This document shows positions 13,001 to 51,770 of a stretch of DNA of 62,854 nucleotides, piece by piece. How positions within the stretch are numbered: the stretch's first letter is position 1; the number at the start of each line of letters is the position of its first letter. Made by a program: the position numbers and the translations under genes. The notes beneath the pieces were generated by a model. It worked only from the letters and a program-made list of their open reading frames with translations. It was not told the origin of the DNA and did not search any database. Source of the stretch: an uncultured Fidelibacterota bacterium. GTDB taxonomy: Bacteria; Fidelibacterota; Marinisomatia; Marinisomatales; UBA1611. The stretch spans positions 1-62,854 of the forward strand of contig CALCSS010000024.1 in NCBI GenBank assembly GCA_937893835.1, written 5' to 3'.

Positions 13001-13591
13001 GAACTCAACCCCATTCAGATAGGCGATATAACCATCATCATAATCAATATGGAACAAGGCTTTTTGAATGATGGTTGGGTCCTCAACCTCAAATTCCTTT
13101 CTAACATAAACGCTGAGCACTTGCGGTGTCTCTGTATTGTCATCATCATCACCATAGCCAAACCCACTTTCTCCAGTAGACCAGAACTCAATATTTGTCT
13201 CAGTCAATTCCCAATTAGATACAGGAGCACTGGTCCCTATCCAATATGACCAAGTATCTCCCCAGTCGATCTTTGCGTCCCATTGGACCACGTAGTCCTT
13301 TCTATCTTTATCAGATGCGAAGACAACAAGGAAGTCATCTGGCTCTAAGGCAATGGAGGGGAAGGTCCATTTGGATAGGTCCTCCGGGTCATCTGTGAGC
13401 CCAAAGCCCAAGAGGTCTATTAATTCGTTAGTTGGATTATGTAGCTCTATCCAATCTGGGGTGTCGCCATCCTCATCATATAGATTATCCCCATTACTAG
13501 TGACGATCTCATTCAATCGAACCGATTGTCCAAAAGGAAGTGAGAAAATCAATAGAAGAAAAGATGATCTAATTAAATATCGCATGGGCAC
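10004..13591 (-). CDS. secreted CotH-kinase-family protein flanked by two lamin-tail domains (LTD), with T9SS C-terminal sorting domain
   Basis: LTD 'LNEIVTSNGDNLYDEDGDTPDWIELHNPT' (N-terminal) and 'LVINEINYNSSDDHESGDWIEVYNPG' (C-terminal). Central CotH-like region ('VLRNSGNDWESTILRDGF', 'NNIKFWRD'). CTD 'YPNPFNGAVNIPFEL...GIYFAKL...KLIYLK' at 10004-10261. Confidence 0.8.
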   Translation of the reverse strand: MPMRYLIRSSFLLLIFSLPFGQSVRLNEIVTSNGDNLYDEDGDTPDWIELHNPTNELIDLLGFGLTDDPEDLSKWTFPSIALEPDDFLVVFASDKDRKDYVVQWDAKIDWGDTWSYWIGTSAPVSNWELTETNIEFWSTGESGFGYGDDDDNTETPQVLSVYVRKEFEVEDPTIIQKALFHIDYDDGYIAYLNGVEFSRRNLGESGSIVYHNTTATDLHEAEIYSGGFPEEINMDLSTFPILEGTNTLAIQVHNYTNNSSDMSCIPFLTLGYDTEIDDISDPHGSMPIPNSFLHTNFRLSSEDETILISDPVETIIDSITIENLDTDMSFGRYLEGESWALFNEPTPGSSNTTPSYLGSLSTPEFSLESGFYDQSQLAIELTSIDDETALIYFTTDGTIPTTSDLTYEYPIVIDASTVLRARTFLDGWVPSDISTKTFLLDEDPPIGLPAIFISTDPNSFFDEDTGMYVMGPNADVWNFPYFGANFWEDWERPIHFEILEVDGSGYAADAGAKIFGGWSRAFPQKSLSIFSRSYIGPSTFDYQLFPDSDIDNYEAFVLRNSGNDWESTILRDGFITSLTEGLDIDHQRYRPATLYINGEFWGIQNIREKVNEHFLSSNHSISPENIDLLDIQGVNDENIVHGTNADYKILINYLDTQDMNDPIVQNALQNWIDIESYMSYQAFQIFVDNRDWPGNNIKFWRDHRVGGKWRWILYDTDFGFGIWDPNAYNYNTLAFALDPNGPGWPNPPWSTFVFRRLMENGHFRDSFINIYCDMLNTVFMPEFLIASLDSIAGNVEDMIPIHRSRWYNDGNWPNSTTNWEYRLDVMEDFSNIRRPRAIIHLRDEFDLPNISQVTIAMAPEFGGSVKLNTLDISETNWHGYYFPTIPIEVRAEQNDGFEFSHWLEFPDSNITMKVNVSDGMTLTAIFLPTELSPGSLVINEINYNSSDDHESGDWIEVYNPGEMDLDISGWTFKDEDDDHSYAFPDETILLSEHYLIISDDPSTFFDHFSNDISVIGPFDFGLGGGGDEVRIYDAEGVLIDSVNYDDDAPWPPEPDGSGPTLELINSNLDNSLAESWSNSSNYGSPGSQNSNYLNNDDQENNIPTMHALMPAYPNPFNGAVNIPFELSSPINSTIVIFNVLGEKVREFPLVHFGTGRHLIKWNGENEHGHHVGTGIYFAKLDLKRSSNVQKLIYLK

Positions 13592-21020: not shown

Positions 21021-23675
21021 ATGACTAGGCCTCTGCTGATTAGCTTATTTTTGTCACTGGTCTACTCCCAGACCACGGGCAAGATCTCAGGTGTGGTAAC
21101 CGATGGGGTAGAGACAAGTCCTTTACCCGGTGCCAATATCTATTTGGAGCAGACATCCTTTGGAGTAGCCTCCGATGGGTCAGGACGCTTTACTCTCATA
21201 AACATACCTCCAGGAAAATATGTTTTAAAAGTGGATATGATCGGCTATAAGTCTGTCCGGATGGAAAATGTCAATGTCTCTGTAAATCGAACCTTCTCAT
21301 TGAATGTTGAAATGGAGGCAACTGTGTTGGAGGGTGAGGTCGTTACTGTTGAAGTAGCAAGACTCGCTCAAAAAAAGGATCAGACAGGGACCATAAAGAA
21401 TATATCCGGTGACGAGATCAATGCTCTTCCAGTTGAGAGTGTTGGAGCGGTCGTCAATATGCAGGCCGGAGTTGTGAATGGTCATTTTCGAGGTGGTAGA
21501 AATACTGAGGTCACCTATATGGTCGATGGGGTCCAGGTAGATGAGGCCTTTGGTGGAGGCAGTGCAACGGTTGAGATACAGCCAGAGGCGGTTCAAGACC
21601 TAGAGGTCATAACAGGTACGTTCAATGCAGAATACGGACGAGCCATGAGTGGCGTTGTCAATGTGGTCACCAAGGACGGAGGCCCCAACTTTGAGGGTTT
21701 TGCGTCGTGGGGTGAGTCAACCTATTCTACAGACAATACAGATATATTCATAGGACTCTCACCTGAAATAAATAGAAGCTCTGACATCAAATTCAGTTTA
21801 GGCGGCCCTATCATTAGGGACAAAGTGACCTTCTTCACCAACATAAGAAAGCAGGAAAATCTTGGTCATTTAAATGGACTGAGACTTTTCCAAGTAGATG
21901 ACTATTCAAATTTTTATTCAGATGATCCCCTACTTTGGTATTCAGAGAAGACAGGTGACAGTAGTTATGTTCCAATGAATACAGGGGTAGGTATATCATC
22001 GCTTCTCAAACTAAGTTTTAATTTCATAAAGGGTATCCGTTTTTCAACTCTTTATTCTTACAGTGATGATTCTTGGTTTGGCTATGATCATGGTTTTAAA
22101 TACAATCCAGATGGCAGGGCTGAATCTGTGAAGTACACAAAGTACTATGCGTTCCAACTCAATCACATGATCTCACAAAATTTATTCTATGAGTTCAAAT
22201 ACTCCGTGACCAATAACGAATACGGTAGCTATGTATTTGAGGATGAATTTGATGGTGGCTATGTACACGATAGATACTTTGATAGTTACGGACCCGGGTT
22301 TTTAACTGGTGGCCAATCAAAGGATCACACAGTGCGTAAAATGATGGATAAAACCCTCAAGCTAGACGCGACATGGCAGGTGAACCATAATCATAGTTTC
22401 AAATCAGGTTTCCATTATTTTTCACATGATCTCGATAATCAATGGCATGCCATAAGAAACAAATATCATAATACTGCAAGCGACTCCATATACGAACCGG
22501 AGATCTTTGGAGATACGTCAGCCTATGCTGATGTTTACAAGGTATCTCCAAAAGAAGCAGCATTCTATATTCAGGACAAGATGGAGTTTGATGATATGGT
22601 TGTTAACATCGGTGTGCGATACGACCAGTTTGATCCTGAGAGCGATTTTCCCTCGGACAGAAGAAATCCAGCAAATCAATTGATCCTCCCTGACTCAATG
22701 ACAAGTCAGTATCCTCAGGCGCCTATCATTGAGCAGGTCAGTCCCAGGGTAGGTTTTGCATATCAACTTGGTAATCAGGCCGTGCTTCACTTCAGCTATG
22801 GTCATTTCTTCCAGATGCCACCAATGTATGCCATGTATCAAAACCATAGTTATCTGGTCGATCCAAATGATTTTGTCACTAGGATGGGAAATACACTGTT
22901 GGAACCAGAGAAGACCATCACCTATGAGATAGGACTCTGGCAGGAATTGAGTAGGCAGGTGAGCTTGGACATTGCTCTTTTCTATCGTGATATATACAAT
23001 CTGCTGACCACCAAGACCCTTTCCACATACAATCAGGTCAAGTATGGCCTCTACTCGAACAAGGACTATGGTAATGCTCGTGGACTGGAGATAAAACTAG
23101 ACCTGGCCCTTGGATCATTGAAAGGGATGGTCAATTATACACTACAATACACAAGAGGGAACGCAGACTCTCCTGGACAGACCTTTGATCGTGCAGGTAA
23201 CAATCAGGACCCAGTGAACCGGTTCATTCCCATGAGCTGGGACCAGCGTCACACTCTTAATGGTTCCTTGATGTATCTGAAAGAGAACCACGGTGCCACG
23301 ATCACTGCATATTACAATTCAGGTTCTCCATACACATTCTCTCCACAGAGCGAGAGCGTGCTATCAAGAATCAATCTATACCCGAACAATGATTACCGGC
23401 CCGAGAAATACTCTGTCGATGGTGCCTTCTACTATCGATTTAAGATCATGAAGGGTCTTAAGGCCACTCTGGACATCAACATATATAACATCTTCGATCG
23501 TTTGAATGAGGAATGGGTCAATGGTCAGACAGGTAGAGCATATACCGCTGTGATCAAGGAGACGGACATTGCCTCTCATCGTAGTGATTTCAATGAATAT
23601 GAGGATCGCATCGAGAATCCATCAATGTATTCTTCTCCCCGATCGATCAAAGTGGCACTAGGGGTCAACTTCTAA
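21021..23675 (+). CDS. TonB-dependent-receptor-like outer-membrane barrel with CarboxypepD_reg domain
   Basis: 'GKISGVVTDGVETSPLPGANIYLEQTSFGVASDGSGRFTLINIPPGKYVLKVDMIGYK'. Plug 'HFRGGRNTEVTYMVDGVQV'. C-terminal 'ALGVNF'. Confidence 0.8.
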   Translation: MTRPLLISLFLSLVYSQTTGKISGVVTDGVETSPLPGANIYLEQTSFGVASDGSGRFTLINIPPGKYVLKVDMIGYKSVRMENVNVSVNRTFSLNVEMEATVLEGEVVTVEVARLAQKKDQTGTIKNISGDEINALPVESVGAVVNMQAGVVNGHFRGGRNTEVTYMVDGVQVDEAFGGGSATVEIQPEAVQDLEVITGTFNAEYGRAMSGVVNVVTKDGGPNFEGFASWGESTYSTDNTDIFIGLSPEINRSSDIKFSLGGPIIRDKVTFFTNIRKQENLGHLNGLRLFQVDDYSNFYSDDPLLWYSEKTGDSSYVPMNTGVGISSLLKLSFNFIKGIRFSTLYSYSDDSWFGYDHGFKYNPDGRAESVKYTKYYAFQLNHMISQNLFYEFKYSVTNNEYGSYVFEDEFDGGYVHDRYFDSYGPGFLTGGQSKDHTVRKMMDKTLKLDATWQVNHNHSFKSGFHYFSHDLDNQWHAIRNKYHNTASDSIYEPEIFGDTSAYADVYKVSPKEAAFYIQDKMEFDDMVVNIGVRYDQFDPESDFPSDRRNPANQLILPDSMTSQYPQAPIIEQVSPRVGFAYQLGNQAVLHFSYGHFFQMPPMYAMYQNHSYLVDPNDFVTRMGNTLLEPEKTITYEIGLWQELSRQVSLDIALFYRDIYNLLTTKTLSTYNQVKYGLYSNKDYGNARGLEIKLDLALGSLKGMVNYTLQYTRGNADSPGQTFDRAGNNQDPVNRFIPMSWDQRHTLNGSLMYLKENHGATITAYYNSGSPYTFSPQSESVLSRINLYPNNDYRPEKYSVDGAFYYRFKIMKGLKATLDINIYNIFDRLNEEWVNGQTGRAYTAVIKETDIASHRSDFNEYEDRIENPSMYSSPRSIKVALGVNF

Positions 23676-26600
23676 TGCTACGTTCACTATATTATTTATT
23701 GTCTTTTATCTTATTCTCGTTCTTTCTTTTTGGACAAGGTAAGGAGTACGAAGGTCCTGAAGATCCTGCCGGTGATCCATCAGCAGAGCGTGAAGGATAT
23801 ATGACCGGGAACAGGGTACTGATCTATTTCAAGAACACCACGGAGATATCAGACTGGCCTGCAGTAAATGCATCCCGTTGGCCAAATAACAATGACGGCG
23901 TGAAGATGGTAGATGGCATTGGTCTCTTGGTCGGTGCAAAGGTATACATCCAAAATGATAGTCTCGAGTCAACGGTTGACACGATTCCTCTAACAGAGCT
24001 GATTGATATCTATACCCAAGACAAGCACACTCTTCACTATCTCCAGACGAGTTATAGGGAAGAGATGGATCGTGACCCAACAGGAACGGTCGAGTGGGGC
24101 TTCTACCCTGTATTTGGCTACTTTAATGAGGCAGACGAGTATCCGGCCGTATCCAATATTGAGAACTCTTGGCCTATTGGCGGATGGCCCTCAACAGGAT
24201 TGGAGACCAAGTGGCCAGGCGAGTGGAATGGTCGTTTTGGTCGTGGAGTGACCTACGCAGATCAGGAATGCTATTATGTGGTCAATGATGCTCAAGATCT
24301 AGAGTATCTAGGTGCTGAGGACAATGTCAAATATTTTCCACGTCCTGGTAAGCACATCGGTGATCTCAAGCCTGATGTTACAAAACAGGTCGGAGAGCCT
24401 TGGGGGGGGCTTGGTCTCAGAGTGGACGTACGTGGATTCCAATGGAACAATCCACAGGCCAGGGATGCTATATTTTGGGAATACTCCATCGCGAACATAT
24501 CAGACTATGACCTGAGGGATGTTGCCTTTGGCTATTGGGTTGATAATGGAATTGGTAATGACAACTCTGATGATATTGGATACTTCGATGTCGAGATCGA
24601 CATGTCCTATTCGTGGGATATTAATGGCATCGGCACAGGAGGACTTCCAACTGGGGTCATGGGTTTTGCATATCTTGAGAGCCCGGGACTTGCCTATGAC
24701 TATCAAGACAATGACTTTGATGGACTTACCGATGAGAAACGGGACAATGAGCCAACTGCCTTGGTGGGCCCTACGGATGGGATCACTGATATTGATGCCT
24801 TTCTTGAATTTTATAAATTAGAGCTTGAGGATCTAAAAGAACACTGGGACGCAGATGAGGACCAAGACTGGGAAGATGGTGAGGATCTGAATGGAGATGG
24901 TATCTATCAATTGGCAGAGTATTATGGGGATGACATTGGCATTGATGGAGTTGGACCTGGTGAATTGAATTATGATGGTCCCGATGCAGATGGTTCAGAA
25001 TGCAATCACAGACCTGACTTTGTTGAGGGTGTCGGTTGTGAGCCAAATTTCAATACTACTGATGTCTCCGAATCAGACATGGTCGGACTTACATCATTTA
25101 GAATGTTTCCCATACCGAGCCATGCCGCATCCAATGAGACAGAGTGGTTCAAGAATGATCAAGTGATGTGGGACCTTGTTGGTGGTGACACACTTGAGGA
25201 ATTTGAGGGTAATATTTCCAATTTGGTCGAGGTGTTTGCCTCAGGGCCCTTCCCACTCTATCAGGGCAGAGTAGAGAGGATATCCATGTCAGAATTACAC
25301 TCATATGACCCCCTGGCAGGTCTGAACTCTGATGATCATTCTGCTCCGGCCCTCTATGAGTTGAAGCGTATTGTGCAGGTGATCTATGAGAAGGACTATC
25401 GCTTTGCACAGCCACCTAAGATGCCTACTCTCACGGCCACAGCAGGAGATGGAGAGGTCATCTTGACCTGGGATGATATTTCAGATACCAGAACAAGAGA
25501 CCCCTTTGTTGGAAATATAAATGACTTTGAAGGTTATAAGGTCTATCGTGCAACAGATAAATATATGGCGGACCCTGAGATCATCACAGATGGGTATGGC
25601 ACGCCCATGTTCAAGAAACCATTGTACCTGTGTGACATGCTCGATCAAAGCCCACACAATCCCAATGAGACAAATGGTATGGTTCACCAGTGTAGCGGCT
25701 TCACTGACTATGGATTGGTGAATGGAACCGGATACAACCTTGGAAATAATTCAGGGATCAACCACATATTCGTGGACAATACGGTTCAAAACGGACGTAC
25801 CTATTACTATGCAATAGTCGCCTATGATTATGGGGCGCCAGACATCGGACCTGGTATCTCACCCTCTGAGAATAATGCAGTGATCGAGTTGGACGAGTAT
25901 GAGAATATTCGTTCCATTGGAAAGAACGTGGCCATTGTCGTGCCTCGTCAGTCTGCGGCAGGTTACATACCACCCAGTCTGGAGATGGAGGATATCGATC
26001 TCCTGGGATCTGGAACGGTCACTCCAATGATCAGAGCTCAAGGGAGCCTGAAGGAAGGGCATCAATATGCCGTTACATTTGGTGTGGATACCATAGCCGT
26101 GGTTAGTGGATACGATCATGGTTTCCAATATGTGACGGATGAGATCTTGGTCTATGATGTCACTGACAGCGTCTACCTTGTATATACAGAGAACTCGACA
26201 AAGTACATTGGTACTAATCTTATATTAAATGATGTTGTTGATGGGATACCAAATTATTGGACCTTGAATCCTGTTGGTACCATAGAGACAGATGTATTTG
26301 ATGGTCTCCAAATAGAGATTGATGATTACTTGGAGATACCAGAGTATAGATATGGAAACTCCGGCTGGGTCAATGGAGATGGGATCATGAGAGTAACACC
26401 ATCTGAGGCTGAAGGCATAAAAATGGCCTGGAAATATCAAGTTGTTTTCACTGATGATGATTCCGCCTATGTGGGTATGGCGTCAACTGGAACAGTTAGA
26501 GATGAACTAGGACAGTCGATTGGTACGCAAAAGATAATGAATCCAGCACTGAGTTTTTATGTGCAGAATACATCCTTTGTTGATTCGGCAGGGAACTATG

Positions 26601-27184
26601 AGTTAATGGATGCTGTCATATATGACCTTGATGATAATGATACGTTTGACATTTTCATTGATAAGATATTCATAGGAGCCACTGGAAGCAATCGCTGGAG
26701 AGGCACGGCCTTTGTCATTGACTTTCAACTTACTACTGAGTCAACATTCCCCCAGCCTGGAGATGTATATCAATTGGACTGGAAACGACCATTTTATGAG
26801 ACTGATACAATTCGATTTACCGTAAATGAGAATCAAGGCCTAGACACAGACGCCTTGGCAAGTGGCATGAAGAATATCAAAGTGGTGCCCAATCCATATG
26901 TAATGACGAATATGATGGAAGAGGCTGTCACGAATCCATATCTCAACCAAAGAAGAAAAATATTGTTCACTCATATTCCCGCTGAATGTACGATCAAGAT
27001 TTTCACGGTGAGTGGGGTCTTGGTCGATGAGATAAAAGTTCAGAATGAGCCAGACCAAGGAATTGTTCACTGGGACATGCTTACAAGAGAGAGCCTTGAG
27101 ATTGCTGCAGGTATGTATATATATCATATAGAGTCGAATGTCACAGGTGATTCCAAACTAGGAAAATTTGCGGTGATCAAATGA
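23675..27184 (+). CDS. 1169-aa secreted protein of unknown function with Asp-rich Ca-binding-type loops, Fn3 and a variant CTD-like C-terminus
   Basis: Start overlaps the TBDR stop (TAATG). Signal peptide. 'DNDFDGLTDEKRD' and 'DEDQDWEDGEDLNGDG'. Fn3 'GDGEVILTWDDISD...YKVYRA'. C-terminus 'IKVVPNPYVM...IKIFTVSGVLV...GMYIYHIE...FAVIK' (26873-27184). Confidence 0.8.
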   Translation: MLRSLYYLLSFILFSFFLFGQGKEYEGPEDPAGDPSAEREGYMTGNRVLIYFKNTTEISDWPAVNASRWPNNNDGVKMVDGIGLLVGAKVYIQNDSLESTVDTIPLTELIDIYTQDKHTLHYLQTSYREEMDRDPTGTVEWGFYPVFGYFNEADEYPAVSNIENSWPIGGWPSTGLETKWPGEWNGRFGRGVTYADQECYYVVNDAQDLEYLGAEDNVKYFPRPGKHIGDLKPDVTKQVGEPWGGLGLRVDVRGFQWNNPQARDAIFWEYSIANISDYDLRDVAFGYWVDNGIGNDNSDDIGYFDVEIDMSYSWDINGIGTGGLPTGVMGFAYLESPGLAYDYQDNDFDGLTDEKRDNEPTALVGPTDGITDIDAFLEFYKLELEDLKEHWDADEDQDWEDGEDLNGDGIYQLAEYYGDDIGIDGVGPGELNYDGPDADGSECNHRPDFVEGVGCEPNFNTTDVSESDMVGLTSFRMFPIPSHAASNETEWFKNDQVMWDLVGGDTLEEFEGNISNLVEVFASGPFPLYQGRVERISMSELHSYDPLAGLNSDDHSAPALYELKRIVQVIYEKDYRFAQPPKMPTLTATAGDGEVILTWDDISDTRTRDPFVGNINDFEGYKVYRATDKYMADPEIITDGYGTPMFKKPLYLCDMLDQSPHNPNETNGMVHQCSGFTDYGLVNGTGYNLGNNSGINHIFVDNTVQNGRTYYYAIVAYDYGAPDIGPGISPSENNAVIELDEYENIRSIGKNVAIVVPRQSAAGYIPPSLEMEDIDLLGSGTVTPMIRAQGSLKEGHQYAVTFGVDTIAVVSGYDHGFQYVTDEILVYDVTDSVYLVYTENSTKYIGTNLILNDVVDGIPNYWTLNPVGTIETDVFDGLQIEIDDYLEIPEYRYGNSGWVNGDGIMRVTPSEAEGIKMAWKYQVVFTDDDSAYVGMASTGTVRDELGQSIGTQKIMNPALSFYVQNTSFVDSAGNYELMDAVIYDLDDNDTFDIFIDKIFIGATGSNRWRGTAFVIDFQLTTESTFPQPGDVYQLDWKRPFYETDTIRFTVNENQGLDTDALASGMKNIKVVPNPYVMTNMMEEAVTNPYLNQRRKILFTHIPAECTIKIFTVSGVLVDEIKVQNEPDQGIVHWDMLTRESLEIAAGMYIYHIESNVTGDSKLGKFAVIK

Positions 27185-28242: not shown

Positions 28243-29712
28243 ATGGTACGGGCTCTGTCCTGCTTCGCACTTATTGTAATAATACCTAACTGTTCTGGTC
28301 ATAAGGACTCGGTCAAAGGTGATCAGATCCTTGCCTATGTTGGAGATAGGACCATTACCATTCAAGACTTCTTAAGAAGGGCTGAATATTCGATAAGACC
28401 TGCTTATTGCCGCCAGTCCAACTATTTACATAAAAAGATCGTGTTGAATTCATTGATCGCTGAGAAGATGACAGGTCTGGAGATGGATACAAAAAAGGAC
28501 GATCTTTTGGAAAGTTCTAATTTTAAGAAATTTCTAAAGGGTAGAACGGAACAGGCAATGCGTCAGGTCTTCTATAATGATTCCTTTTATGATTCAGTCT
28601 CACTATCGGACGATGATATAAGGGAACGCTATCTACTTTCAGGCAGGACCATTCAAATAGATTATCTGAGTTTACCAGATATGGAGATGGTTCAGAAGTT
28701 CAAACAGCTTCTTGATGGTGGGATGCCCTTGGACTCGATCTATTCATATCTTTGGCAGGGTGACGTACCTTCAAGAACTATTAATTGGTTTGATCGAGAG
28801 CCAAAGATGATCCACGATGGCCTTTTCAGAGAAGATCTGGAAAAGGGTGAGATCATTGGACCATTCAAGGCAGATGATGGTACCTACCTAGTGATCGAGG
28901 TAAGGGGCTGGTCCGATCAACCTGTGATCACACAAGACCAGCAAGATCTACGTTGGAATGATGTTAGTGATAGATTGAAAGAGACTAGTGCCACGGGTCA
29001 GTTTAAGGATTATGTTGAAAATTTGATGAAAGATAAAAAAATGGATCTAGAACCAGAGACATTCAATTCATATGCTTCGATCGCAGGTGATCATTATCTA
29101 AGAGATGAAGAAGAGAAGAAGATAGCAATTGATCAGGCTATATGGGATAACGCTGAGCAAATCGACCTGAGACCCTTTGACAATAGGGCAGGTCTTGATC
29201 TATCGGCGACCTTATTTCGATATGATGGCAAAAATTATAGTGTCGGAGACTTCAATGATATGTTGAGATCACATCCTCTTGTTTTTCGAAAGAGAAAGAT
29301 GAACAAGGGGGAATTCCGATCACAACTAAAATTCGCGATCGCTGATCTATTGAGAGACATGGAATTGACTCGAGTATGCTATGATAAAGGCCTGGACAGT
29401 GACTGGAGAGTGGAGTCCAATGTGTTTCTATGGGAGGATGCATATGCCAGCAGGAGATATATGGAGATAAATGGTCTAGATGACAATGCAACAGAGCAAG
29501 AGTCACTTGATCTTTTTGGTTCTATCATTGATTCATTACAGGAAGCATATTCAAATAAGATCAAGATAAATATGGATGCCTTTGAGACGCTTGAACTCAC
29601 ATCAACTGACATGCTGGTCACTCAAAGGGGCTTGCCATATCCGATAGTTGTTCCATCATTTCCTATTTTAACGTCTGATAACCGATTAGATTATGGATCA
29701 ATATTAAAATAG
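28243..29712 (+). CDS. SurA/PpiD-like periplasmic chaperone lipoprotein (degenerate parvulin region)
   Basis: Lipobox-like 'IIPNCSG'. SurA-N-like 'ILAYVGDRTITIQDFLRRAEYS'. Parvulin-tail-like 'GEIIGPFKADDGTYLVIEVRG'. Confidence 0.45.
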   Translation: MVRALSCFALIVIIPNCSGHKDSVKGDQILAYVGDRTITIQDFLRRAEYSIRPAYCRQSNYLHKKIVLNSLIAEKMTGLEMDTKKDDLLESSNFKKFLKGRTEQAMRQVFYNDSFYDSVSLSDDDIRERYLLSGRTIQIDYLSLPDMEMVQKFKQLLDGGMPLDSIYSYLWQGDVPSRTINWFDREPKMIHDGLFREDLEKGEIIGPFKADDGTYLVIEVRGWSDQPVITQDQQDLRWNDVSDRLKETSATGQFKDYVENLMKDKKMDLEPETFNSYASIAGDHYLRDEEEKKIAIDQAIWDNAEQIDLRPFDNRAGLDLSATLFRYDGKNYSVGDFNDMLRSHPLVFRKRKMNKGEFRSQLKFAIADLLRDMELTRVCYDKGLDSDWRVESNVFLWEDAYASRRYMEINGLDDNATEQESLDLFGSIIDSLQEAYSNKIKINMDAFETLELTSTDMLVTQRGLPYPIVVPSFPILTSDNRLDYGSILK

Positions 29713-37638: not shown

Positions 37639-40077
37639 TTGTTTTTCCTTCGATCTATAAAGGTCATCATATTTATATCTCTCACTTTTTTGGTGGCACA
37701 GAATACATCAAGCATCAATGGTTTTGTAAGAAATAATGCGAATGGGGAGCCCATATCCTATGCAAATGTCTTTATAAGTAATACATCGATAGGCGCAGCA
37801 ACAAATCGGGACGGATACTTTGTAATATCTGATATACCTCTAGGTGAGTATGAGGTCAATGTGTCCATGATAGGATATGCAGTCCACAAGGAAATGGTAG
37901 AGCTCTTTGATGGAAGTCCGGTCAGACTGGAGATTGGTATGAAAGATCAGGTGATCGAAGGCTCAGAGGTTTTGGTCACGGCAGAACGTCAAAAATTTGA
38001 GAGGTCCATCGAGAGCAGTCAAATATCCTTGGACATCAGAGAGATAAATTCCGCACCTGCTTTCATAGAGCCTGATGTATTTAGAACCCTGCAAATGCTT
38101 CCGGGAGTCCAGACCACAAGCGATTTTTCCAGTGCGCTTTATGTTAGAGGTAGTACTCCCGACCAGAACCTGATCATGCTGGATGGCATCGTGGTCTATA
38201 ACCCCTATCATCTAGGCGGGATCTTCTCAACGTTCAATACGGATGCGATAAAGGAAGCAGATTTTCATGCTGGAGGATTCCCTGCGAGGCACGGAGGAAG
38301 AATGGGGGCCATACTCAATGTGATCAATCGAGAGGGCAATACGAACGAGATTACGGGCATGGCCAATATCTCTCTCATTTCTAGCAAGGGTTTACTGGAA
38401 GGTCCACTACCAAGGTGGAGGGGAATGAAGGGTTCTTGGATGATATCAGGGCGTAGGACCTATTTTGATTCAATTGTCGATGCTCTGAAGATACCAATGG
38501 GTCAGAAGGCTGATGGCACGGATGCATATTTTCAGTTTCCATATTTCTTTTATGACTATCAAGTGAAGATCAATCTAGACATCAACCAAGACCATCGCAT
38601 CACATACTCTCGTTTCTATGGTGATGACGTGTTAGACTATTCCTGGGATGAAAGGGAAAGCATAGATAATGCAAATGTAGATCGTGATACAGAGACTGGT
38701 TTTAGCATCAAATGGCCTTGGGGGAATCGTACAAATGGTCTTATATGGCGGTGGATCATGTCTCCTGAGGTGGTCGCAAAGACCTTTGTATCAAATAGTA
38801 GGTATCGATTTGATTTTGACCTTGGTTTTTATTTTAGGGATACCTACACCTATGCAGACTCTGTAACGGCAATATTTACAGATGTTAACTGGAGACTGTA
38901 TGATATTATCAATGATAATTCAATAGAGACTGAGTTAACTTGGAAAGCAACTGATCGTCATGAGATAACGGGGGGCTTCCAATTAAAGAGTGTGGACTTT
39001 GATCTTGGAGAAGAAGTGAAAATCGCCACCCAGGATACATCCGTCATTTTTTCACCATTAACTCTAGATAATAAGACCCGTGAGATCTCATTCTTCATTC
39101 AAGACAGGTGGGAATTCTCAGAAAAATTAAAATTTCAATTAGGAATCAGGGGCACTGATTACAACTTGCATGATGAGTTTTATCTTGATCCAAGACTGGG
39201 AATGAAATATCATTATTCAAAGGATATTGCCTTGAAGCTAAATTGGGGACTCTATCATCAATTCTTGACCACTGCAAATAATCAGGATGAAAATCTCAGG
39301 TTGGTGGAACTCTGGCTAGGTATACCTGAGGACAAGCCTGCTGCCATATCTCAACACATAATAGGTGGCCTTGAATACATGTCCCCAAAAAATATTTTTT
39401 ATCGATTAGAGCTATACCAAAAAGATTTCGATAATCTTCTCACATTGAAACAAGAAAATCAGAATACGATGGAAGGGGGTGAGTCTGACACCCCATTCAA
39501 TGAGTTTTGGGATACTAGAGGAAATAGTTGGGGCGTTGAATTCTTATTGAAAAAATCATCTGGCAGGCTAAATGGCTGGGTCGGATATACCTACGCAGAG
39601 ACAAAATATTTCACTGAGCCCAGTGGATGGCATCATCCGAACTTTGACCGAACCCATACAATCAATGTCGTAGGCAATATTGAACTGACAGAAGAACTTG
39701 AGATAAGTACGGCTCTCACACAATCAAGTGGAAATCCCTATACAAAGATTCTGGGAAGGGTCTATGATTGGGAACAGAATCTATATAGTGATACATACTG
39801 GTATCCTCTTGATAGTTATATCGTTGGAGAAAAGAACACAGAGCGTTATGATGATTATTTCAGGATAGATGTTGGTATGACACGAAAAGGTGGCAACTTA
39901 TTTGGCCTGGAATATGATACATACTGGCAGGTGATGAATGTTACAAAACACTTGAATGCATTTAGTTATGCTTATAGGACAAAAACAGGTATGAACGGTG
40001 ATCAATTGGGTGTGGAAAGAAGAGTGGTCCCACAGTTCCCCTTGATCCTTACCTTTGGGGTGAAATTTGATTTTTAA
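37639..40077 (+). CDS. TonB-dependent-receptor-like outer-membrane barrel with CarboxypepD_reg domain (TTG start)
   Basis: 'SSINGFVRNNANGEPISYANVFISNTSIGAATNRDGYFVISDIPLGEYEVNVSMIGY'. Plug 'LYVRGSTPDQNLIMLDGIVVYNPYHLGG'. Ends 'TFGVKFDF'. Confidence 0.8.
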   Translation: MFFLRSIKVIIFISLTFLVAQNTSSINGFVRNNANGEPISYANVFISNTSIGAATNRDGYFVISDIPLGEYEVNVSMIGYAVHKEMVELFDGSPVRLEIGMKDQVIEGSEVLVTAERQKFERSIESSQISLDIREINSAPAFIEPDVFRTLQMLPGVQTTSDFSSALYVRGSTPDQNLIMLDGIVVYNPYHLGGIFSTFNTDAIKEADFHAGGFPARHGGRMGAILNVINREGNTNEITGMANISLISSKGLLEGPLPRWRGMKGSWMISGRRTYFDSIVDALKIPMGQKADGTDAYFQFPYFFYDYQVKINLDINQDHRITYSRFYGDDVLDYSWDERESIDNANVDRDTETGFSIKWPWGNRTNGLIWRWIMSPEVVAKTFVSNSRYRFDFDLGFYFRDTYTYADSVTAIFTDVNWRLYDIINDNSIETELTWKATDRHEITGGFQLKSVDFDLGEEVKIATQDTSVIFSPLTLDNKTREISFFIQDRWEFSEKLKFQLGIRGTDYNLHDEFYLDPRLGMKYHYSKDIALKLNWGLYHQFLTTANNQDENLRLVELWLGIPEDKPAAISQHIIGGLEYMSPKNIFYRLELYQKDFDNLLTLKQENQNTMEGGESDTPFNEFWDTRGNSWGVEFLLKKSSGRLNGWVGYTYAETKYFTEPSGWHHPNFDRTHTINVVGNIELTEELEISTALTQSSGNPYTKILGRVYDWEQNLYSDTYWYPLDSYIVGEKNTERYDDYFRIDVGMTRKGGNLFGLEYDTYWQVMNVTKHLNAFSYAYRTKTGMNGDQLGVERRVVPQFPLILTFGVKFDF

Positions 40078-41140
40078 GTTGCCATGTCGAATCATCTTCT
40101 CGTTTATGATGATCAGTATCATGGGATGCCTTTTCCCGACCAATGAGTGGGAGGACCTAGAGTCTGATTATGATCATGTATTGAATGTCTTTGGTCTGAT
40201 CAATCTAGACCCTGGTCACCCAAGTTATGTTGGACTCTATAGAACGACAGACCTTGATGAGACCGTATTGACCCTAGTTGAAACGGATACCCTATACTGG
40301 TGCGATTGCGATGATGATGAATGTTGGGAATGTGATGAAGGTCAGGATGGTTATTGGGTAGTGGACTCGATCTATGAACCTGCCGCCCTTATAAAAGACG
40401 CATCCGTCAATGTGATCGATGATCAGGGTAACAATTTTGAGCTATCATATGTTGATAAGATAACATTCGTGGATACCGTATACTTCGACACGACATTTAC
40501 TTTCTATGGCACCACGATCACATGGGATACCACCTACTACGACACGAATGATTTCCGCATCAATTTCTATGTTGACACAACTGGTTCCTTTGTTCCTCAA
40601 CCAGAGACCAATTATGATCTAAGCATATCTGCTCCTGGTTTTGATCCGGTGACGGGGTCACTCATGACGCCATCCATCCCAAATATTGATTCTCTATCAC
40701 AGAGGGGAAGGTCTGTTGATACTATTACTGCAAATGAACCTTTTGACATTCATTGGAGTCAGACAATGGGCATGGGGCTGGTCACTGGAGAGGTGATCTT
40801 TGGTAATTTTTGGGAAGACACATCAAATGGTGATTGGTGCGGAGGATATTTTGATGATTTTGTGATAGACCTTGAGGATGATTCTCAAAATCCATATGGG
40901 ATCACTGCTGAATATTGTGGAGAAGAGATGGACACACAGGAAACCTTAGACTATTTTATACGCCTCACTGCCATGGAAGATAATTACCATGAGTATTTTA
41001 TCACTGGTGAGATGGGCGAATATTCAAATGCGTTGCTCAATTATCCTACCACAAAGGGCCGCTCGGTTGGTATCGAGGGAGGATTTGGTTTTTTTGGATC
41101 GATCGCATCTGATGGCCTTTTATTAAAGATAGCACCATAA
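40067..41140 (+). CDS. hypothetical lipoprotein coupled to the TBDR (position analogous to DUF4249 partners)
   Basis: TTG start overlapping the TBDR end. Signal/lipobox 'MIFKLPCRIIFSFMMISIMGC'. Cys/Asp-rich 'CDCDDDECWECDEG'. Confidence 0.6.
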   Translation: MIFKLPCRIIFSFMMISIMGCLFPTNEWEDLESDYDHVLNVFGLINLDPGHPSYVGLYRTTDLDETVLTLVETDTLYWCDCDDDECWECDEGQDGYWVVDSIYEPAALIKDASVNVIDDQGNNFELSYVDKITFVDTVYFDTTFTFYGTTITWDTTYYDTNDFRINFYVDTTGSFVPQPETNYDLSISAPGFDPVTGSLMTPSIPNIDSLSQRGRSVDTITANEPFDIHWSQTMGMGLVTGEVIFGNFWEDTSNGDWCGGYFDDFVIDLEDDSQNPYGITAEYCGEEMDTQETLDYFIRLTAMEDNYHEYFITGEMGEYSNALLNYPTTKGRSVGIEGGFGFFGSIASDGLLLKIAP

Positions 41141-41349: not shown

Positions 41350-42489
41350 ATGAAATCAATTACAACTATAATTCTACTATTTAATTCAATTTTTTATGCC
41401 CTGAATGGACAGACTCAATTTGATGCGGTTGGTAGTGAATTGGCTAAGTTAGAACTCATACTCCAAGAAGCCTCTAGATCTTCACAGAGAGTATTCGTTG
41501 AGGACTTTACAGGTCTCCAATGACCCTATTGCCCTTCAGCAAGTTTTGCGATATCCGAGATGTTAGATACCTATCCAGAGACATTGGTTAACATAGAGTG
41601 GCACAGTCCAAATTTTACTCCAGGGAATTCAGATTTTGATATTTCAGAGTATTCCACAAGGGCAAATCTCTATGGTGTTGGGGGTATTCCTCATACACAA
41701 TGGAATGGAGTTGAAGAAACCATTGGTGGATATGCAAATGGTAATTGGGAACCTTTCATGGGCACATTTATGAATTTGTATAATTATATGATAGGCAATG
41801 AAACCCCATATGAGATTTCCATCAATGGGCAAATTGGATCAGAAGTCTCATATGATGTAATCATATCAATGGATTCGGACCTGAGCAATGCCAATCAAAA
41901 GGTTGATGTGTTTGTGGTAGAGGATAATATCTGGTCATATTGGACTGGTGCAGGTCAATATCATAATGCCAGAAATGTGGCAAGAGATTGGCTTTTATCA
42001 GAAGATCTGGAAATAAATTCTTCGGGAGAATCTCAAACATTCTCAGGATCATTTGATTTGGGAGAAAGTTGGAACTCAGATAGTGTAAAAATAATTGCAA
42101 TAGTTCAAAACTATTCATCAAACCAGATCTATCAAGTTACGCAGGTTAATATTAATGAGATGAATCCAGACATTGATGATGATGGCATCCTGAATCATGA
42201 AGATAATTGTATTGATATCTTTAATCCTGACCAAGAAGACCAAGATTCAGACCTTATAGGTGACGCTTGCGATCCTTGTGATAATCTGATATATGTTTCA
42301 GGAAATCTAAATGGTGATGTGAATAATGACCAACCTGTGATAGACATATTTGATGTTTTGATATTATCAGACTATTTTAATTCTGGTGAGTTAAATGAAT
42401 GCCAAGATCTAATAGTTGATATTAATGACGATGGAAATGTCAATGTGGTTGATCTAATATCGCTATTGCAAATAATCATGGGTAATTAA
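41350..42489 (+). CDS. candidate selenoprotein: signal peptide + Omp28-related/thioredoxin-fold domain with U-x-x-C, thrombospondin-type-3 repeats and dockerin-like C-terminus
   Basis: ATG 41350 ('MKSITTIILLFNSIFYA...VFVEDFTGLQ'), TGA at 41521-41523, then 'PYCPSASFAISEM...' in frame with track ORF 41560-42489. TSP3-like 'DIDDDGILNHEDNCIDIFNPDQEDQDSDLIGDACDPCD'. Dockerin-like 'GNLNGDVNNDQPVIDIFDVLIL...VDINDDGNVNVVDLISLL'. Confidence 0.7.
41521..41523 (+). other. in-frame TGA, candidate selenocysteine codon (FTGLQ-U-PYC-P)
   Basis: Occupies the first-Cys position of the FTGxxCxxCP redox motif. Frame continuity was verified by hand. Confidence 0.65.
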
Positions 42490-44706: not shown

Positions 44707-45279
44707 ATGGAATTCTCAACTGAACTATTTAATCTAGCCTTCAGATTTGGATTTAATCTATCGATCGCTTACGTGATCATAAAACTGATATATCATCGAG
44801 ATCATAATAATAACGATTTTGTTTTTACATATTTCATGTTCAATTCATTGATCTTCTTTTTTGCGTACATATTGGGGAATATGGACATTAATATTGGCTT
44901 TGCTTTTGGATTATTTGCTGTGTTTGCCATTCTTCGATATAGGACCGACCCGATTCCCATCAAAGAAATGACCTATCTATTTGTTGTGATTACCATAGGT
45001 GTCATAAATGCCCTAGGTCAAAATGAAGTATCCTATGGCGAATTATTATTTACAAATGTTACACTGGTTCTATTAACCTATTTTCTTGAAAATTATTGGC
45101 AAAATAATTTACTTCGTCGTCGTACCGTGGAATATGAGATCATTGAGAACATAAAACCCGAAAACCATGAAAAATTACTTCTTGACCTGAAAGATAGAAC
45201 AGGACTATCCATTGTACATTTCGAGATTCGAAGGGTCTTTTTGGATAAGGTCAATATTCGAATTTATTCCACAGATTGA
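44707..45279 (+). CDS. DUF4956-like integral membrane protein
   Basis: 190 aa with an N-terminal multi-helix hydrophobic part and a charged C-terminal tail. This resembles my recollection of DUF4956 proteins, which usually accompany VTC and CotH genes. Confidence 0.55.
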   Translation: MEFSTELFNLAFRFGFNLSIAYVIIKLIYHRDHNNNDFVFTYFMFNSLIFFFAYILGNMDINIGFAFGLFAVFAILRYRTDPIPIKEMTYLFVVITIGVINALGQNEVSYGELLFTNVTLVLLTYFLENYWQNNLLRRRTVEYEIIENIKPENHEKLLLDLKDRTGLSIVHFEIRRVFLDKVNIRIYSTD

Positions 45280-48292: not shown

Positions 48293-49597
48293 TCATAATC
48301 CAATGATCATCTCAGCCAAAGTATCTATGTCACTATGATCAATGTTTCTGTCTCTATTTACATCAAATCTGTAAAGGTGATAAATGTCTAGGTTAGACCC
48401 TTCTTCAGCAAAGTGGTCAGCTATGATGCTTAGATCAATAATATCAACCTTATCATCCAGATTTGTATCACCAAGAATTAAATTTGTATCGAATTGCCAT
48501 TCATGCTTTGTGACCCTATAGCAATAGACAGGGTCTGTATATTTTAAGTCTAGAACGATATTCTTATCCTGATCCACTTCTGTGACCACCCCGATTTGCT
48601 CCTCTAATCTTCCCCAATTGATTAGAGTATTGTTGTTCGGCAATCTTTGAGCACTTCCCATTGCAAGCCCAACATAACCTTCGGGATGTGAGAAGTCCCA
48701 AACCAGATTTGCAGTCATATTAGTTTCATCCAACTCATATTCTACAGCTCTAGATATTGGTGGTTCGTGGTCATTCCCATTATCGAAAAGTAATAGATTT
48801 CCATTCTCCAGTCTTCTTACATCATGTTGTCTACTGAACCCATTATAATCATCATTTATAATGGTAAACTGATTATTTGCTCCACCCAATATCCAAATGA
48901 CCTGGCCGTTGTCTCGATCTAATTTAATTACCTCACTGCTTATCCTATTTGATATGATTATATTGGAATCCTCATCAATCTCTATGCTATTACCATGCAT
49001 CCACATAATGAAACCTGCTGACAGGTTAATATAATTGTAGTTGGTAATATTCAAATGGTCCCACGCATTCCATTCAAAGATCAGATTCTTATCTGAATCA
49101 AATTCTTGAATGATGAGGGTTACGACCGTTGCATTGGTATTGCCACCTGGGTCAATTGTGCTTAGATCGACCGATATTGAATCATATGCTTGTATTAAGT
49201 ATCCACCATTCTGTAAGAGTTGTATGTCATGAAAGTCTGTATAATACCCGTTAGCACATGTCAGTGTGTCAATCTCGGTCATATATTCGTTCATTATTAT
49301 CCATGCATTATTCTCATGGTCAAAATAAGATATTCTATCTTGTTGAACCTTGAGGTCAAGTCCCAAGGGTCCTGAATTCACTACCCAGACCGCATCCAAC
49401 ATCGAATCAATAATTGCCATATATCTTGGCATTGTACCTGTAGTTGGAGAGAGATGAGCCAGATTATGTATGAATATGTTTGCTGGATAGGGATCATTAT
49501 TCACAATGATCTCGAAGTCCAAATAGTTCACCTCTTGTGATAATACTAAACAAGTAGAAACAAAAAAAGTTATAATGATGTGTTTTACAAGATTCAT
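48293..49597 (-). CDS. arylsulfotransferase (ASST)-like beta-propeller protein with dockerin-like C-terminus
   Basis: 'FSRQHDVRRLENGNLLLFDNGN' and 'ISNRISSEVIKLDRDNGQVIW' are typical of the ASST fold. Dockerin-like 'GDTNLDDKVDIIDLSII...FDVNRDRNIDHSDIDTLAEMI'. Confidence 0.65.
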   Translation of the reverse strand: MNLVKHIIITFFVSTCLVLSQEVNYLDFEIIVNNDPYPANIFIHNLAHLSPTTGTMPRYMAIIDSMLDAVWVVNSGPLGLDLKVQQDRISYFDHENNAWIIMNEYMTEIDTLTCANGYYTDFHDIQLLQNGGYLIQAYDSISVDLSTIDPGGNTNATVVTLIIQEFDSDKNLIFEWNAWDHLNITNYNYINLSAGFIMWMHGNSIEIDEDSNIIISNRISSEVIKLDRDNGQVIWILGGANNQFTIINDDYNGFSRQHDVRRLENGNLLLFDNGNDHEPPISRAVEYELDETNMTANLVWDFSHPEGYVGLAMGSAQRLPNNNTLINWGRLEEQIGVVTEVDQDKNIVLDLKYTDPVYCYRVTKHEWQFDTNLILGDTNLDDKVDIIDLSIIADHFAEEGSNLDIYHLYRFDVNRDRNIDHSDIDTLAEMIIGL

Positions 49598-49715: not shown

Positions 49716-51770
49716 ATGAAGAAAGGGATCCTTCTGCTATTGCCTATCTTATGCATAGCAAAAAATCTTTCTCTTGAACATCGAATCAATCCACCTAATA
49801 GAGAGTTGATGGACGTAGAGATAGTTAATGACATTATGATCATACCAGGTAATTTGGATGGTTATGACTTCTACGATATCTCTGACCCTACCGATCCAAC
49901 CATAATTGCCAATCTTGAGATCCCAATGGGCAATGGCAATCGTTCTTTGCCAGGGATATGGGTATCAGCCACGGATAGCGTGGCCTATTTTACTTGCAGA
50001 ACAAAGCAAGAGGGCTCTGCCATCGTTGATTTTTCTGATCCAAATAATCCCGTCCATATTGGGGCACTTTCCCTAAGTGGAACAGATATGAATGACCCTT
50101 CCTTTGAGGGCTCTGATATTAGTGGCAACCTATTGGCCGTTGCCATGCACGAGGATGGTGTCATATTCTATGATATATCAGATCCATTAGAACCTGATCT
50201 TATCTTGCAAAGACCATGTGAAAATGCTTGGACCGTTGCCTTTATTGATTCAAATCATTATGTGATAGGAAATGGTGATCACGGAATCATTATTGAAGAA
50301 TTTTATTGTCTAGAAGATACTTGTGAAAGTAGTTCCTTTCCAACGGAGGGTGCGGTCAAGGATCTGGCAATAAAAGATCATTTGCTTTTTGTGGCTGAAG
50401 GTTCTGATGGAATCTCAATTTACGATATCTTAGATATTGATCAACCGATTCTGTTAGACCGATATGATACTCCAGGACTATCAAACAAGATTGCTTTGTT
50501 TGGTACGAATAAGATTGCTGTATCCGATTGGTTGGATGTCAAGATCCTTGAGTGGACAGGTACTGGATTGGAACTGGTCGGTTACAAAAGTACGGGCAAA
50601 CGTACAATGGCAATTGGTGCAAGGGACAGTATAATATATTCTGCTGAGTGGCAGCATCTACAAACATTTTCATTTGGTGATATTCAAGAAGGAGACTTGG
50701 ACGTGGGTTCCTGGGACATATCCTATCCCAATCTTGAGATTGGTCAGAGTGATACATTTGATCTTTTGTTTGAGAATAATGGTCAATCACCACTTGGACT
50801 CTATCCACCTTTTATCAATCATGCTGATTTTCAATCAATTAATTTTCCAGAGTATCTTGGTCCTGGAGATACTAGTATTGCCCAGGTCATTTATAACAGG
50901 TCGAGCCAAAATGCATCAGGGGTGATGCAGATCACATCAAGTGACCCGGATGAATCACAAATCGATATTCTTTTAGTAGGGAACTATGAGGGGGGAATTG
51001 TAGGCTTGCCCGCACCTGCGTTTACCTTGCCTATTGCTGCGAATGGATCTGGAGATTTTCTCCTAAGTGACTATTTAGGTCAGGTAGTGGTGGTAGCATT
51101 CTTTGCCCCTGGATGACCTGTTTGCATTCCGGAGTTATCGGATCTAGAAACATCCATTTGGCAGACCTATCCTCAGGATAGCGTAATGCTTGTGGGAATC
51201 ACATCTGTGAGCCAAAACCAGATAGAGCAATTCATTGAGGAAACGGGGGTCACATATCCAATTCTACAAGATGAATCTAGCAGCGGTCTTGGAGGCTTTG
51301 GTGGTGTGGTCTATGATGACTATTACATTCCTAATCAGGGATCTCCCTATCCTAGGGATTTCATTATCGATCAAAATGGAATATTGGTATATGCCAATAA
51401 TGAGGTGGACACTGATTATATGCTTTTTATCATAAATGAGCTTCTTACAGAGGAAGATATTGTTGGCGTTCAAAATGATGCGTATCCAATTAATGGGTTC
51501 AATTTCCTTTCAGTATATCCCAATCCATTTAATCCTATCACTACGATTAGATATGATTTACATAAAGATGATTTTGTAACTATCACGGTCTATGATATGC
51601 TTGGTAATATTGTTAGTACTCTCGTAAACCAGAATCAAAATTCAGGTTATAGGACAGTACAATGGAATGCTACAAATGATCAAGGACAATTAGTCTCTGC
51701 CGGAGTATATCTATATAGCATAGAAGTGGAAGAGTTCAGGCAGACCAAGAAAATGATACTCCTTAAATAG
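49716..51770 (+). CDS. candidate selenoprotein: LVIVD-repeat beta-propeller + Ig-like domain + TlpA/ResA-type thioredoxin domain with U-x-x-C + T9SS CTD
   Basis: Track ORFs 49716-51116 and 51186-51770 are in the same frame, separated only by TGA 51114-51116 and 23 open codons. Thioredoxin block 'FLLSDYLGQVVVVAFFAPG-U-PVC-IPELSDLE...VTYPILQDE...PRDFIIDQNGILVY'. LVIVD-type 'YDFYDISDPTDPTIIANL'. CTD at 51513-51770. Confidence 0.75.
51114..51116 (+). other. in-frame TGA, candidate selenocysteine codon (FFAPG-U-PVC-IPEL)
   Basis: Occupies the first-Cys position of the WCxxC block of TlpA/AhpC-TSA-type thioredoxin folds. Confidence 0.7.

Follow-up and report, generated by a model that had tools for sequence, protein, structure and literature searches.

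Comparative evidence for an Omp28-related selenoprotein encoded across an in-frame UGA codon in marine Marinimicrobia

Thioredoxin-fold selenoproteins with a U-x-x-C motif have been predicted for bacteria and marine metagenomes, among them thioredoxins, DsbA-like proteins and thiol:disulfide interchange proteins (e.g. TIGR02187, PDO_seleno_TRX). One family, named for having selenocysteine (Sec) in place of the first Cys of CxxC, is curated as NCBIfam NF045500.1, 'Omp28-related selenoprotein' (Omp28_seleno, equivalog_domain). Its 377-position model spans thioredoxin-like, Omp28-like, thrombospondin type-3 (TSP3) and dockerin parts; our literature search turned up no paper on this family. Two further systems are relevant for comparison: the Omp28 outer-membrane lipoprotein family (PF11551; NF033782; structure 2R2C) and HBP35 of Porphyromonas gingivalis, a hemin-binding cell-surface protein with thioredoxin activity. 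The residues C48 and C51 of HBP35 confer this activity (insulin reduction) in vitro, and its gene complements an E. coli dsbA mutant (PMC2907840). Here, we describe a locus at positions 41350–42489 of contig CALCSS010000024.1, a 62,854-nt stretch from an uncultured Fidelibacterota bacterium, which is called the window in its whole length. This locus is very probably a single gene for an exported Omp28-related selenoprotein of marine Marinimicrobia (SAR406), in which UGA is read as Sec.

The frame opened by the ATG at 41350 encodes MKSITTIILLFNSIFYALNGQ...SQRVFVEDFTGLQ and then meets a single in-frame TGA (41521–41523), 171 nt or 57 codons from the start. Translation continues with PYCPSASFAISEMLDTYPE... 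and the frame is open to the TAA at 42487–42489. The program-made list of open reading frames (ORFs) divided the gene at this point into a 57-codon ORF and a 309-codon ORF, the latter beginning at a Met codon at 41560, 39 nt past the TGA. An earlier note, made from the letters of this DNA, had proposed a candidate selenoprotein on the basis of this layout. Its ATG and TGA coordinates, the two offsets (171 and 39 nt), the lack of any later stop and the motif FTGLQ-U-PYC-P were all borne out by translation; in full, the read-through motif is VFVEDFTGLQ-U-PYC-PSASF. The N-termini of the homologues are short and K-rich, followed by a hydrophobic segment that often ends with -xAQ or -xSQ. In related genomes, the tblastn matches cross the TGA and cover query residues 1–377. 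Scanning the six frames of the window for in-frame TGAs with at least 40 open codons on each side (at least 200 in total) yielded four sites, and the hairpin downstream of the TGA is marginal in this copy, so the window sequence alone is not decisive. The TGA at 45277 was rejected as an ordinary gene boundary between a DUF4956 and a DUF2490 gene, and the TGA at 2825 as the end of a minus-strand gene.

The decisive data were comparative. When 5.8 billion proteins were searched, 305 relatives emerged. Only one of the best 120 protein clusters spans the site; the others start past the TGA position and are ~271–329 residues long, and the members with source names are called 'hypothetical protein' or 'uncharacterized protein'. 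The one full-length cluster (P0002) has a 'W' at the site. Its Tara Oceans contig encodes TGA there, and the 'W' is therefore the product of a code-4 gene call. A scan covering one genome per species found 21 loci, giving 22 loci and 37 gene copies with the window included. The loci with a named taxon are metagenome-assembled or single-cell genomes of Marinimicrobia (Neomarinimicrobiota, SAR406); the others are labelled as uncultured bacteria only. TGA occupies the aligned codon in 37/37 copies, at 50–73% identity, within the conserved surroundings ASRSSQ(R/K)VFVEDFTGLx-TGA-PYCPSASFA. Upstream of the TGA, a stretch of 25 codons is free of stops in every copy, and its pairwise differences at codon positions 1, 2 and 3 (0.29, 0.20 and 0.61) follow the same pattern as those of the 30 codons downstream (0.23, 0.17 and 0.47).

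More distant full-length homologues were recovered by an exhaustive search of cluster representatives. Six of them, with 36–45% identity, carry Cys in the TGA column: P0192, P0196 and P0227 (CPYC), P0194 (CTYC), P0198 (CYYC) and P0202 (CTFC). Judged by the alignment, these homologues and the TGA copies are a classic Sec/Cys pair. The earlier note had asked whether homologues have Cys aligned to the TGA and whether disruptive mutations occur elsewhere in the gene. The six do, while all closer homologues keep TGA; no disruptive mutation was found, and the 57 upstream codons evolve as coding sequence. At the level of sequence comparison, the TGA conservation, the coding signature upstream of it and the hairpin covariation described below are decisive.

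Two observations on relatives stand apart from this set. The 495-residue protein P0183 shares 49–51% identity with the window protein and P0002, yet D-Q-Y-S replaces U-P-Y-C and its C-terminal part also differs from the selenoproteins; from its sequence it would be either a redox-dead relative or a mis-called sequence. Tandem arrays of three to four Omp28-type paralogues occur in six loci (L002, L003, L004, L005, L006 and L008), for example at L006 10001–16251. The array members are 39–73% identical to the window protein, and every member has a TGA and a hairpin of its own. A Cys-type TlpA-like redoxin (WATWCVPC, 11123–11650) and a DUF6029 protein come after the first copy in L006.

For the RNA element, 75 nt around the TGA were aligned for all 37 copies. 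The family hairpin pairs alignment columns 27–31 with 35–39 and has a loop at columns 32–34, with the consensus C-G-C-G-A / G-U-U / U-C-G-C-G. In the 5-bp helix, 184 of the 185 cells are paired (99.5%). Compensatory changes were found at pair 27–39, where C-G is replaced by U-A in eight copies, and at pair 30–36, where G-C is replaced by A-U in three copies including the window. The covariation score was reached by no shuffle, and every slid register was worse. Variation falls on synonymous third positions in codons for Ser, Ala, Phe and Ala. Codon choice was compared with the share of each codon among its synonyms in the window genes. AGT encodes the loop Ser in 37/37 copies (background 19.6%), GCG the first and the second stem Ala in 30/37 and 29/37 copies, respectively (background 10.7% for each), and TTC the Phe in 34/37 copies (background 33%).

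The core of the window hairpin pairs 41539–41542 with 41546–41549 around the loop G41543 U41544 U41545. The outer, fifth pair of the family is replaced by an A-G mismatch (41538/41550), leaving 4 bp; alternatively, A41538 is bulged, and C41537-G41550 and U41536-A41551 are formed. The latter structure (U-A, C-G, bulged A41538, G-C, C-G, A-U, A-U, loop GUU) is the weak candidate for a Sec insertion sequence (SECIS) that the earlier note had described. It is present as given there, and its pairing is kept throughout the family, with compensatory changes; the 5-bp stem is the helix that has support, and the bulged-A extension is specific to the window copy. A stem extension through columns 25–26 and 40–41 was discarded, as it pairs in only 4–6 of the 37 copies. 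RNAalifold also paired GG and CC around the UGA, which is uninformative because those columns never vary. Counted from the U of UGA, the hairpin comprises nt 18–30, with the loop at G23-U24-U25. The minimal E. coli SECIS is an upper stem-loop of nt 15–31, 11 nt after UGA, with a conserved bulged U17 and the loop nucleotides G23 and U24 (PMC8659212). The loop G and U are therefore at the same distance from the UGA in both.

The joined 379-residue protein was searched with Sec written as Cys. NF045500 matched with E=2.7e-168 and 560.2 bits (cut-off 200), residues 22–377 aligning with model positions 15–376 of 377. A family of exactly this architecture is therefore already curated as a selenoprotein, and the assignment is a correct recognition, not a discovery. 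The earlier proposal of a selenoprotein is upheld by this match, by the TGA in 37/37 copies, by the Cys homologues and by the covarying hairpin; as a new candidate it does not stand. Among the separate modules, Pfam PF11551 (Omp28) aligned with residues 148–270 (E=2.2e-8, 34.6 bits) and NCBIfam NF033782 with residues 36–270. The TSP3 repeat at residues 272–311 gave E=1.5e-15 with thrombospondin-2 and E=3.4e-12 with COMP (phmmer against the PDB), and NCBIfam throspo3_MtsC covers residues 272–309. For residues 322–372, Pfam PF00404 (Dockerin_1) scored 23.2 bits, marginally above the cut-off of 22.9, and weak matches to PDB dockerins were also obtained. No C-terminal sorting domain of the type IX secretion system (T9SS; Por_Secre_tail) was matched in the selenoprotein by Pfam or NCBIfam. 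The protein has TSP3 and dockerin instead, and Por_Secre_tail is present on neighbouring genes in the window.

The structure was modelled for the homologue P0002, the window numbering being that of P0002 plus 6. The AlphaFold2 model had a mean pLDDT of 85 (~95 in the thioredoxin region) and a pTM of 0.70, and the signal-peptide region was of low confidence. The thioredoxin fold extends over residues 42–141, with the redox pair 52/55 (U58/C61 in the window) at the start of helix 1. Its secondary structure elements are beta1 (42–48), a helix (55–68), a strand (73–79), a helix (94–101), two strands (109–112 and 116–119) and a helix (128–141). In the model, this is the thioredoxin beta-alpha-beta-alpha-beta-beta-alpha fold with CxxC at the N-terminus of helix 1. 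The strands of a beta-sandwich follow at 148–261 (~154–267 in window numbering), and then the dockerin helices. Pro114 (GGIPH) is invariant in the alignment and directly precedes beta3, which is the cis-Pro position. Foldseek against the PDB ranked HBP35 first (5Y1A, E=5.3e-13), followed by 2AXO, the Omp28 domain 2R2C (E=1e-4) and many thioredoxins, the thioredoxin matches having a probability of 1.0. The beta-sandwich matched 2R2C and the second domain of 5Y1A. The family profile also matched the MJ0307 thioredoxin (1fo5, E=1.6e-4). The earlier assignment of exported domains (Omp28, thioredoxin fold, TSP3 and dockerin) was thus supported by Pfam, Foldseek, the PDB searches and AlphaFold2.

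Based on these features, the following mechanism can be proposed. The UGA at 41521 would be decoded as Sec. The mRNA hairpin located 14–15 nt past the UGA, with its G+C-rich stem of 4–5 bp and the loop G23-U24-U25, would bring SelB–Sec-tRNA(Sec) to a ribosome that has paused at this codon, as with the minimal E. coli fdhF SECIS. The N-terminal signal peptide would direct the product to secretion via the Sec translocon. Sec58, exposed at the start of helix 1, would act as the attacking nucleophile and Cys61 as the resolving residue, so that the pair cycles between the selenol/thiol and selenenylsulfide states and catalyses extracytoplasmic thiol–disulfide exchange. Anchoring to the cell surface or to a partner may be the role of the Omp28-like beta-sandwich, the calcium-binding TSP3 repeat and the dockerin. 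By analogy with HBP35, the protein is a presumed exported thiol–disulfide oxidoreductase.

Several results weigh against the selenoprotein reading. ARAGORN found no tRNA-Sec in the window or the 21 related loci, and a six-frame motif search, which included 331 kb of related sequence, gave no credible SelD, SelB or SelA signature. The window hairpin is the weakest of the 37 (4 bp, −1.9 kcal/mol), 40 of 200 shuffles fold as well, and single-sequence folding of 41515–41600, a check proposed in the earlier note, gave no signal (z=+0.9). No Rfam SECIS model matched the whole window at gathering thresholds, and permissive E-values for 41480–41620 brought up one chance snoRNA only. A candidate 3-bp lower stem (columns 18–20 with 44–46) was rejected, being paired in only 64%. 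The window protein falls 0.3 bits short of the Pfam Omp28 gathering threshold (34.9 bits); the domain can nevertheless be taken as homologous because most homologues have a precomputed PF11551 hit and the fold matches 2R2C. The neighbours differ between the window and the related loci, and the context therefore gives no functional clue. Finally, the literature search found no experimental selenium incorporation for any family member.

The search for the Sec machinery bears on the most serious rival, in which the UGA is recoded to Cys or another standard amino acid by a Cys-charged tRNA-Sec-like or suppressor tRNA, giving a full-length protein that is not a selenoprotein. The lack of Sec machinery in the window and in 331 kb of related sequence would suit this rival, and Cys functions at the aligned position in distant homologues. 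Bacteria that re-read Sec codons as Cys through selC-like tRNAs have reportedly been described by Mukai and colleagues in 2016–2017. Plain suppression, however, needs no conserved SelB-type hairpin at the correct spacing, and a single TGA-to-TGY change would give Cys, yet TGA is kept in 37/37 copies. General suppression would also be harmful because TGA is the ordinary stop of 9/32 genes. Moreover, two SAR406 single-cell genomes are listed as 'Sec-utilizing organisms', credited with one and five known selenoproteins, in a survey that assessed the trait through a search for SelD, SelA and SelB (Peng et al. 2016, PMC5029168, Table S2). We consider this recoding improbable. If the UGA simply terminated translation, the locus would be a split or decaying gene, or its product would be the downstream ORF 41560–42489 only. 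Almost all public gene calls do begin at a Met after the TGA under the name 'hypothetical protein', and the window hairpin is thermodynamically marginal. That Met is missing in many homologues, where the gene callers begin later, at MYGVGG, and it is therefore not a conserved start. The downstream ORF would be without the signal peptide, strand beta1 and the whole redox motif, and the 57 codons upstream are under purifying selection and stop-free in 37/37 copies. A decaying gene would not be expected to keep one stop and no more, invariably a TGA in place of the first Cys, across 50–73% identity and in three to four paralogues per genome. Termination is thus even less probable than Cys recoding.

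The two remaining rivals have almost no weight. A sequencing or assembly error for TGT or TGC in the window would take one base change; the same TGA is found in 37 independently assembled copies that differ in sample and method and come from metagenome-assembled genomes, single-cell genomes and Tara contigs. A genetic code with TGA as a sense codon (code 4 or code 25) could be suspected from the one gene caller that put W at the site in a homologue, and it is refuted by stop usage: the 32 domain-supported window genes end with TAA (16), TGA (9) or TAG (7). TGA is therefore not a sense codon in general, and the genetic code is standard. Trp or Gly would also be unfit where the homologues have a catalytic Cys, and T9SS-bearing bacteria of the FCB group are not known to use either code. 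Sequencing error, pseudogene and alternative code can be regarded as excluded for practical purposes. Sec insertion at the UGA is by far the most probable explanation of the locus. The features of the gene are collected in Table 1.

Table 1. Features of the Omp28-related selenoprotein gene in the window
Feature	Position	Strand	Basis
Complete selenoprotein coding sequence, 379 codons including one UGA (probable Sec), TAA stop	41350..42489	+	Translation; NCBIfam NF045500
Predicted N-terminal signal peptide MKSITTIILLFNSIFYALNG	41350..41409	+	Read from the sequence: Lys2, then hydrophobic stretch; cleavage site inferred
Thioredoxin-fold domain (~residues 48–147), U58-x-x-C61 and Pro114	41491..41790	+	AlphaFold2, Foldseek, family profile
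UGA, probable Sec residue 58; U-P-Y-C redox motif at 41521–41532	41521..41523	+	TGA conservation, Cys homologues
SECIS-like apical hairpin	41536..41551	+	Covariation, codon choice, spacing
Omp28-like beta-sandwich (residues 148–270)	41791..42159	+	Pfam PF11551, strands of the P0002 model, Foldseek
TSP3 (calcium-binding) repeat (residues 272–311)	42163..42282	+	phmmer against the PDB; NCBIfam throspo3_MtsC
Dockerin type I-like module (residues 322–372)	42313..42465	+	Pfam PF00404; weak PDB dockerin matches

Inspection of the window revealed a further gene with a possible U-x-x-C motif at 49716–51770 (+). An LVIVD-repeat ORF (49716–51116) ends at a TGA (51114–51116) and continues in frame through it into ORF 51186–51770, in which an AhpC/TSA-redoxin domain is represented by its C-terminal half only and accompanied by a T9SS sorting domain. 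Reading through gives VVVAFFAPG-U-PVC-IPE, with the TGA at the first Cys of the redoxin motif, and a hairpin (UCCGG-AGUUA-UCGGA) follows the TGA at 51128–51142. No NCBIfam family scored above its cut-off; the best was ResA, with 27.6 bits vs 170. For this reason, the gene may be less well catalogued than the Omp28-type one. It looks like a second selenoprotein gene, and the organism of the window accordingly appears to decode Sec elsewhere too. The redoxin domain is homologous to that of a W-U-(P/G/S)-x-C redoxin gene of the related loci (E=6e-9), the U positions being aligned.

In 12 related Marinimicrobia loci, a gene of this redoxin-type family (FTSW-U-PSC-QxEAP) was found at a distance of 1–4 kb from those of the Omp28 type. 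The TGA codons of the family are at L002 11342, L003 13904, L004 8955, L005 11331, L006 16565, L008 15009, L009 13323, L010 7649, L011 3974, L014 14090, L016 4518 and L017 13859. Its downstream hairpin (GUGGA-GGC-UCCAC) also shows compensatory changes (GUGGA/GCGGA/UCGGA - GGC - UCCAC/UCCGC/UCCGA), and these involve non-synonymous codons. In L006, the redoxin-type gene has the same TSP3 and dockerin tail as the Omp28-type protein. One could speculate that Marinimicrobia build a surface-anchored set of selenoenzymes, in which dockerin tails assemble Omp28- and redoxin-type proteins on one scaffold, a scenario that we regard as unlikely. If true, an abundant ocean bacterium would possess an extracellular redox module of several selenoproteins, an assembly of a kind not described so far. 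The module might then process disulfide-rich or organosulfur dissolved organic matter, or aid metal or haem uptake beside TonB-dependent receptors.

The window gene is a single copy in a context unlike that of the array loci. Its neighbours are a TonB-dependent receptor gene, a gene with no assigned domain and a GH18 gene, while those in the related loci are a TlpA-like redoxin, a DUF6029 protein and paralogues. In a tblastn search of 17 window proteins against the related loci, the selenoprotein only was matched. Directly upstream of it lies ORF 40067–41140 (+, 357 residues), which shares 11 nt with the end of the TonB-dependent receptor gene. Like ORFs 23675–27184 and 28243–29712 (+; 1169 and 489 residues), it belongs to the clusters of TonB receptor and glycoside hydrolase genes, and none of the three has a Pfam or NCBIfam match.

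Elsewhere in the window, positions 13617–35783 hold a large cluster for glycan utilisation. Among its genes are a GH3 gene into which an EF-hand pair is inserted, three consecutive GH16 genes and a GH5 gene with CBM6/35, together with those for a LacI regulator, a sodium:solute symporter, a CBM9 protein, a TonB-dependent receptor and a PorV-like protein. Most of its proteins carry T9SS sorting domains, and from its gene content the cluster looks like a beta-glucan (laminarin-type) locus. Dockerin type I modules end a 1584-residue PGA_cap/PKD protein (2823–7577, −) and an arylsulfotransferase-like protein (48293–49597, −); the organism therefore uses dockerin as well as T9SS tails on secreted proteins. 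A 1195-residue protein (10004–13591, −) combines CotH kinase, lamin-tail, chitobiase C-terminal and T9SS sorting domains, which is an unusual mix.

Since the family is already curated as a selenoprotein, these results do not change the current understanding of it. Their residual interest lies in the systematic truncation of public entries, the minimal SECIS and the clustering of exported selenoproteins in Marinimicrobia. Public calls lose the signal peptide and the catalytic site because they begin past the TGA; one annotation correction applies to hundreds of marine metagenome entries. The hairpin provides comparative support for an unusually small bacterial SECIS, having a 5-bp stem, a GUU loop, the E. 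coli spacing and clean covariation. SAR406, an abundant and uncultured ocean lineage, would seem to equip several exported redox proteins with selenium, a point relevant to the marine selenium demand.

Comparison with the described systems places the gene within NF045500. It shares the architecture of that model, and its TGA coincides with the Sec position for which the family is named. It differs from those relatives that have three to four tandem copies in being a single copy beside TonB-dependent receptor and GH18 genes. With the other thioredoxin-fold U-x-x-C selenoproteins, it has in common that Sec would replace the N-terminal Cys of CxxC at helix 1 and that Cys homologues exist, and TIGR02187 gave a weak match (E=7e-4). 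The combination of an Omp28 sandwich, TSP3 and dockerin sets it apart from them, as does a known distribution limited to Marinimicrobia. Like the E. coli fdhF SECIS, its RNA element is an apical hairpin just 3' of the UGA within the coding region, with G23/U24 in the loop. The E. coli element is 17 nt long (nt 15–31) and has the bulged U17, whereas the family described here has 5 bp and a 3-nt loop, its consensus is without a conserved bulge, and no lower stem is supported.

Among proteins of known structure, HBP35 (5Y1A) is the best match, with 255 aligned columns and TM values of 0.47/0.55. In both proteins, an N-terminal thioredoxin-like domain precedes a beta-sandwich, the redox motif lies ~50 residues into the chain (C48/C51 vs U58/C61), and both are exported, which for the window protein is a prediction. 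The sequence identity is 15%, and the sequence-profile similarity is not significant (E=0.66). HBP35 has Cys where the window protein would have Sec, and its C-terminus is a T9SS sorting domain instead of TSP3 and dockerin. The Omp28 lipoproteins share the beta-sandwich of residues 148–270. Compared with their curated cut-offs, the window protein scores lower (54.7 vs 150 for NF033782 and 34.6 vs 34.9 for Pfam). It has no lipobox Cys and hence no lipoprotein signal, and to the common sandwich it adds TSP3, dockerin and, very probably, Sec.

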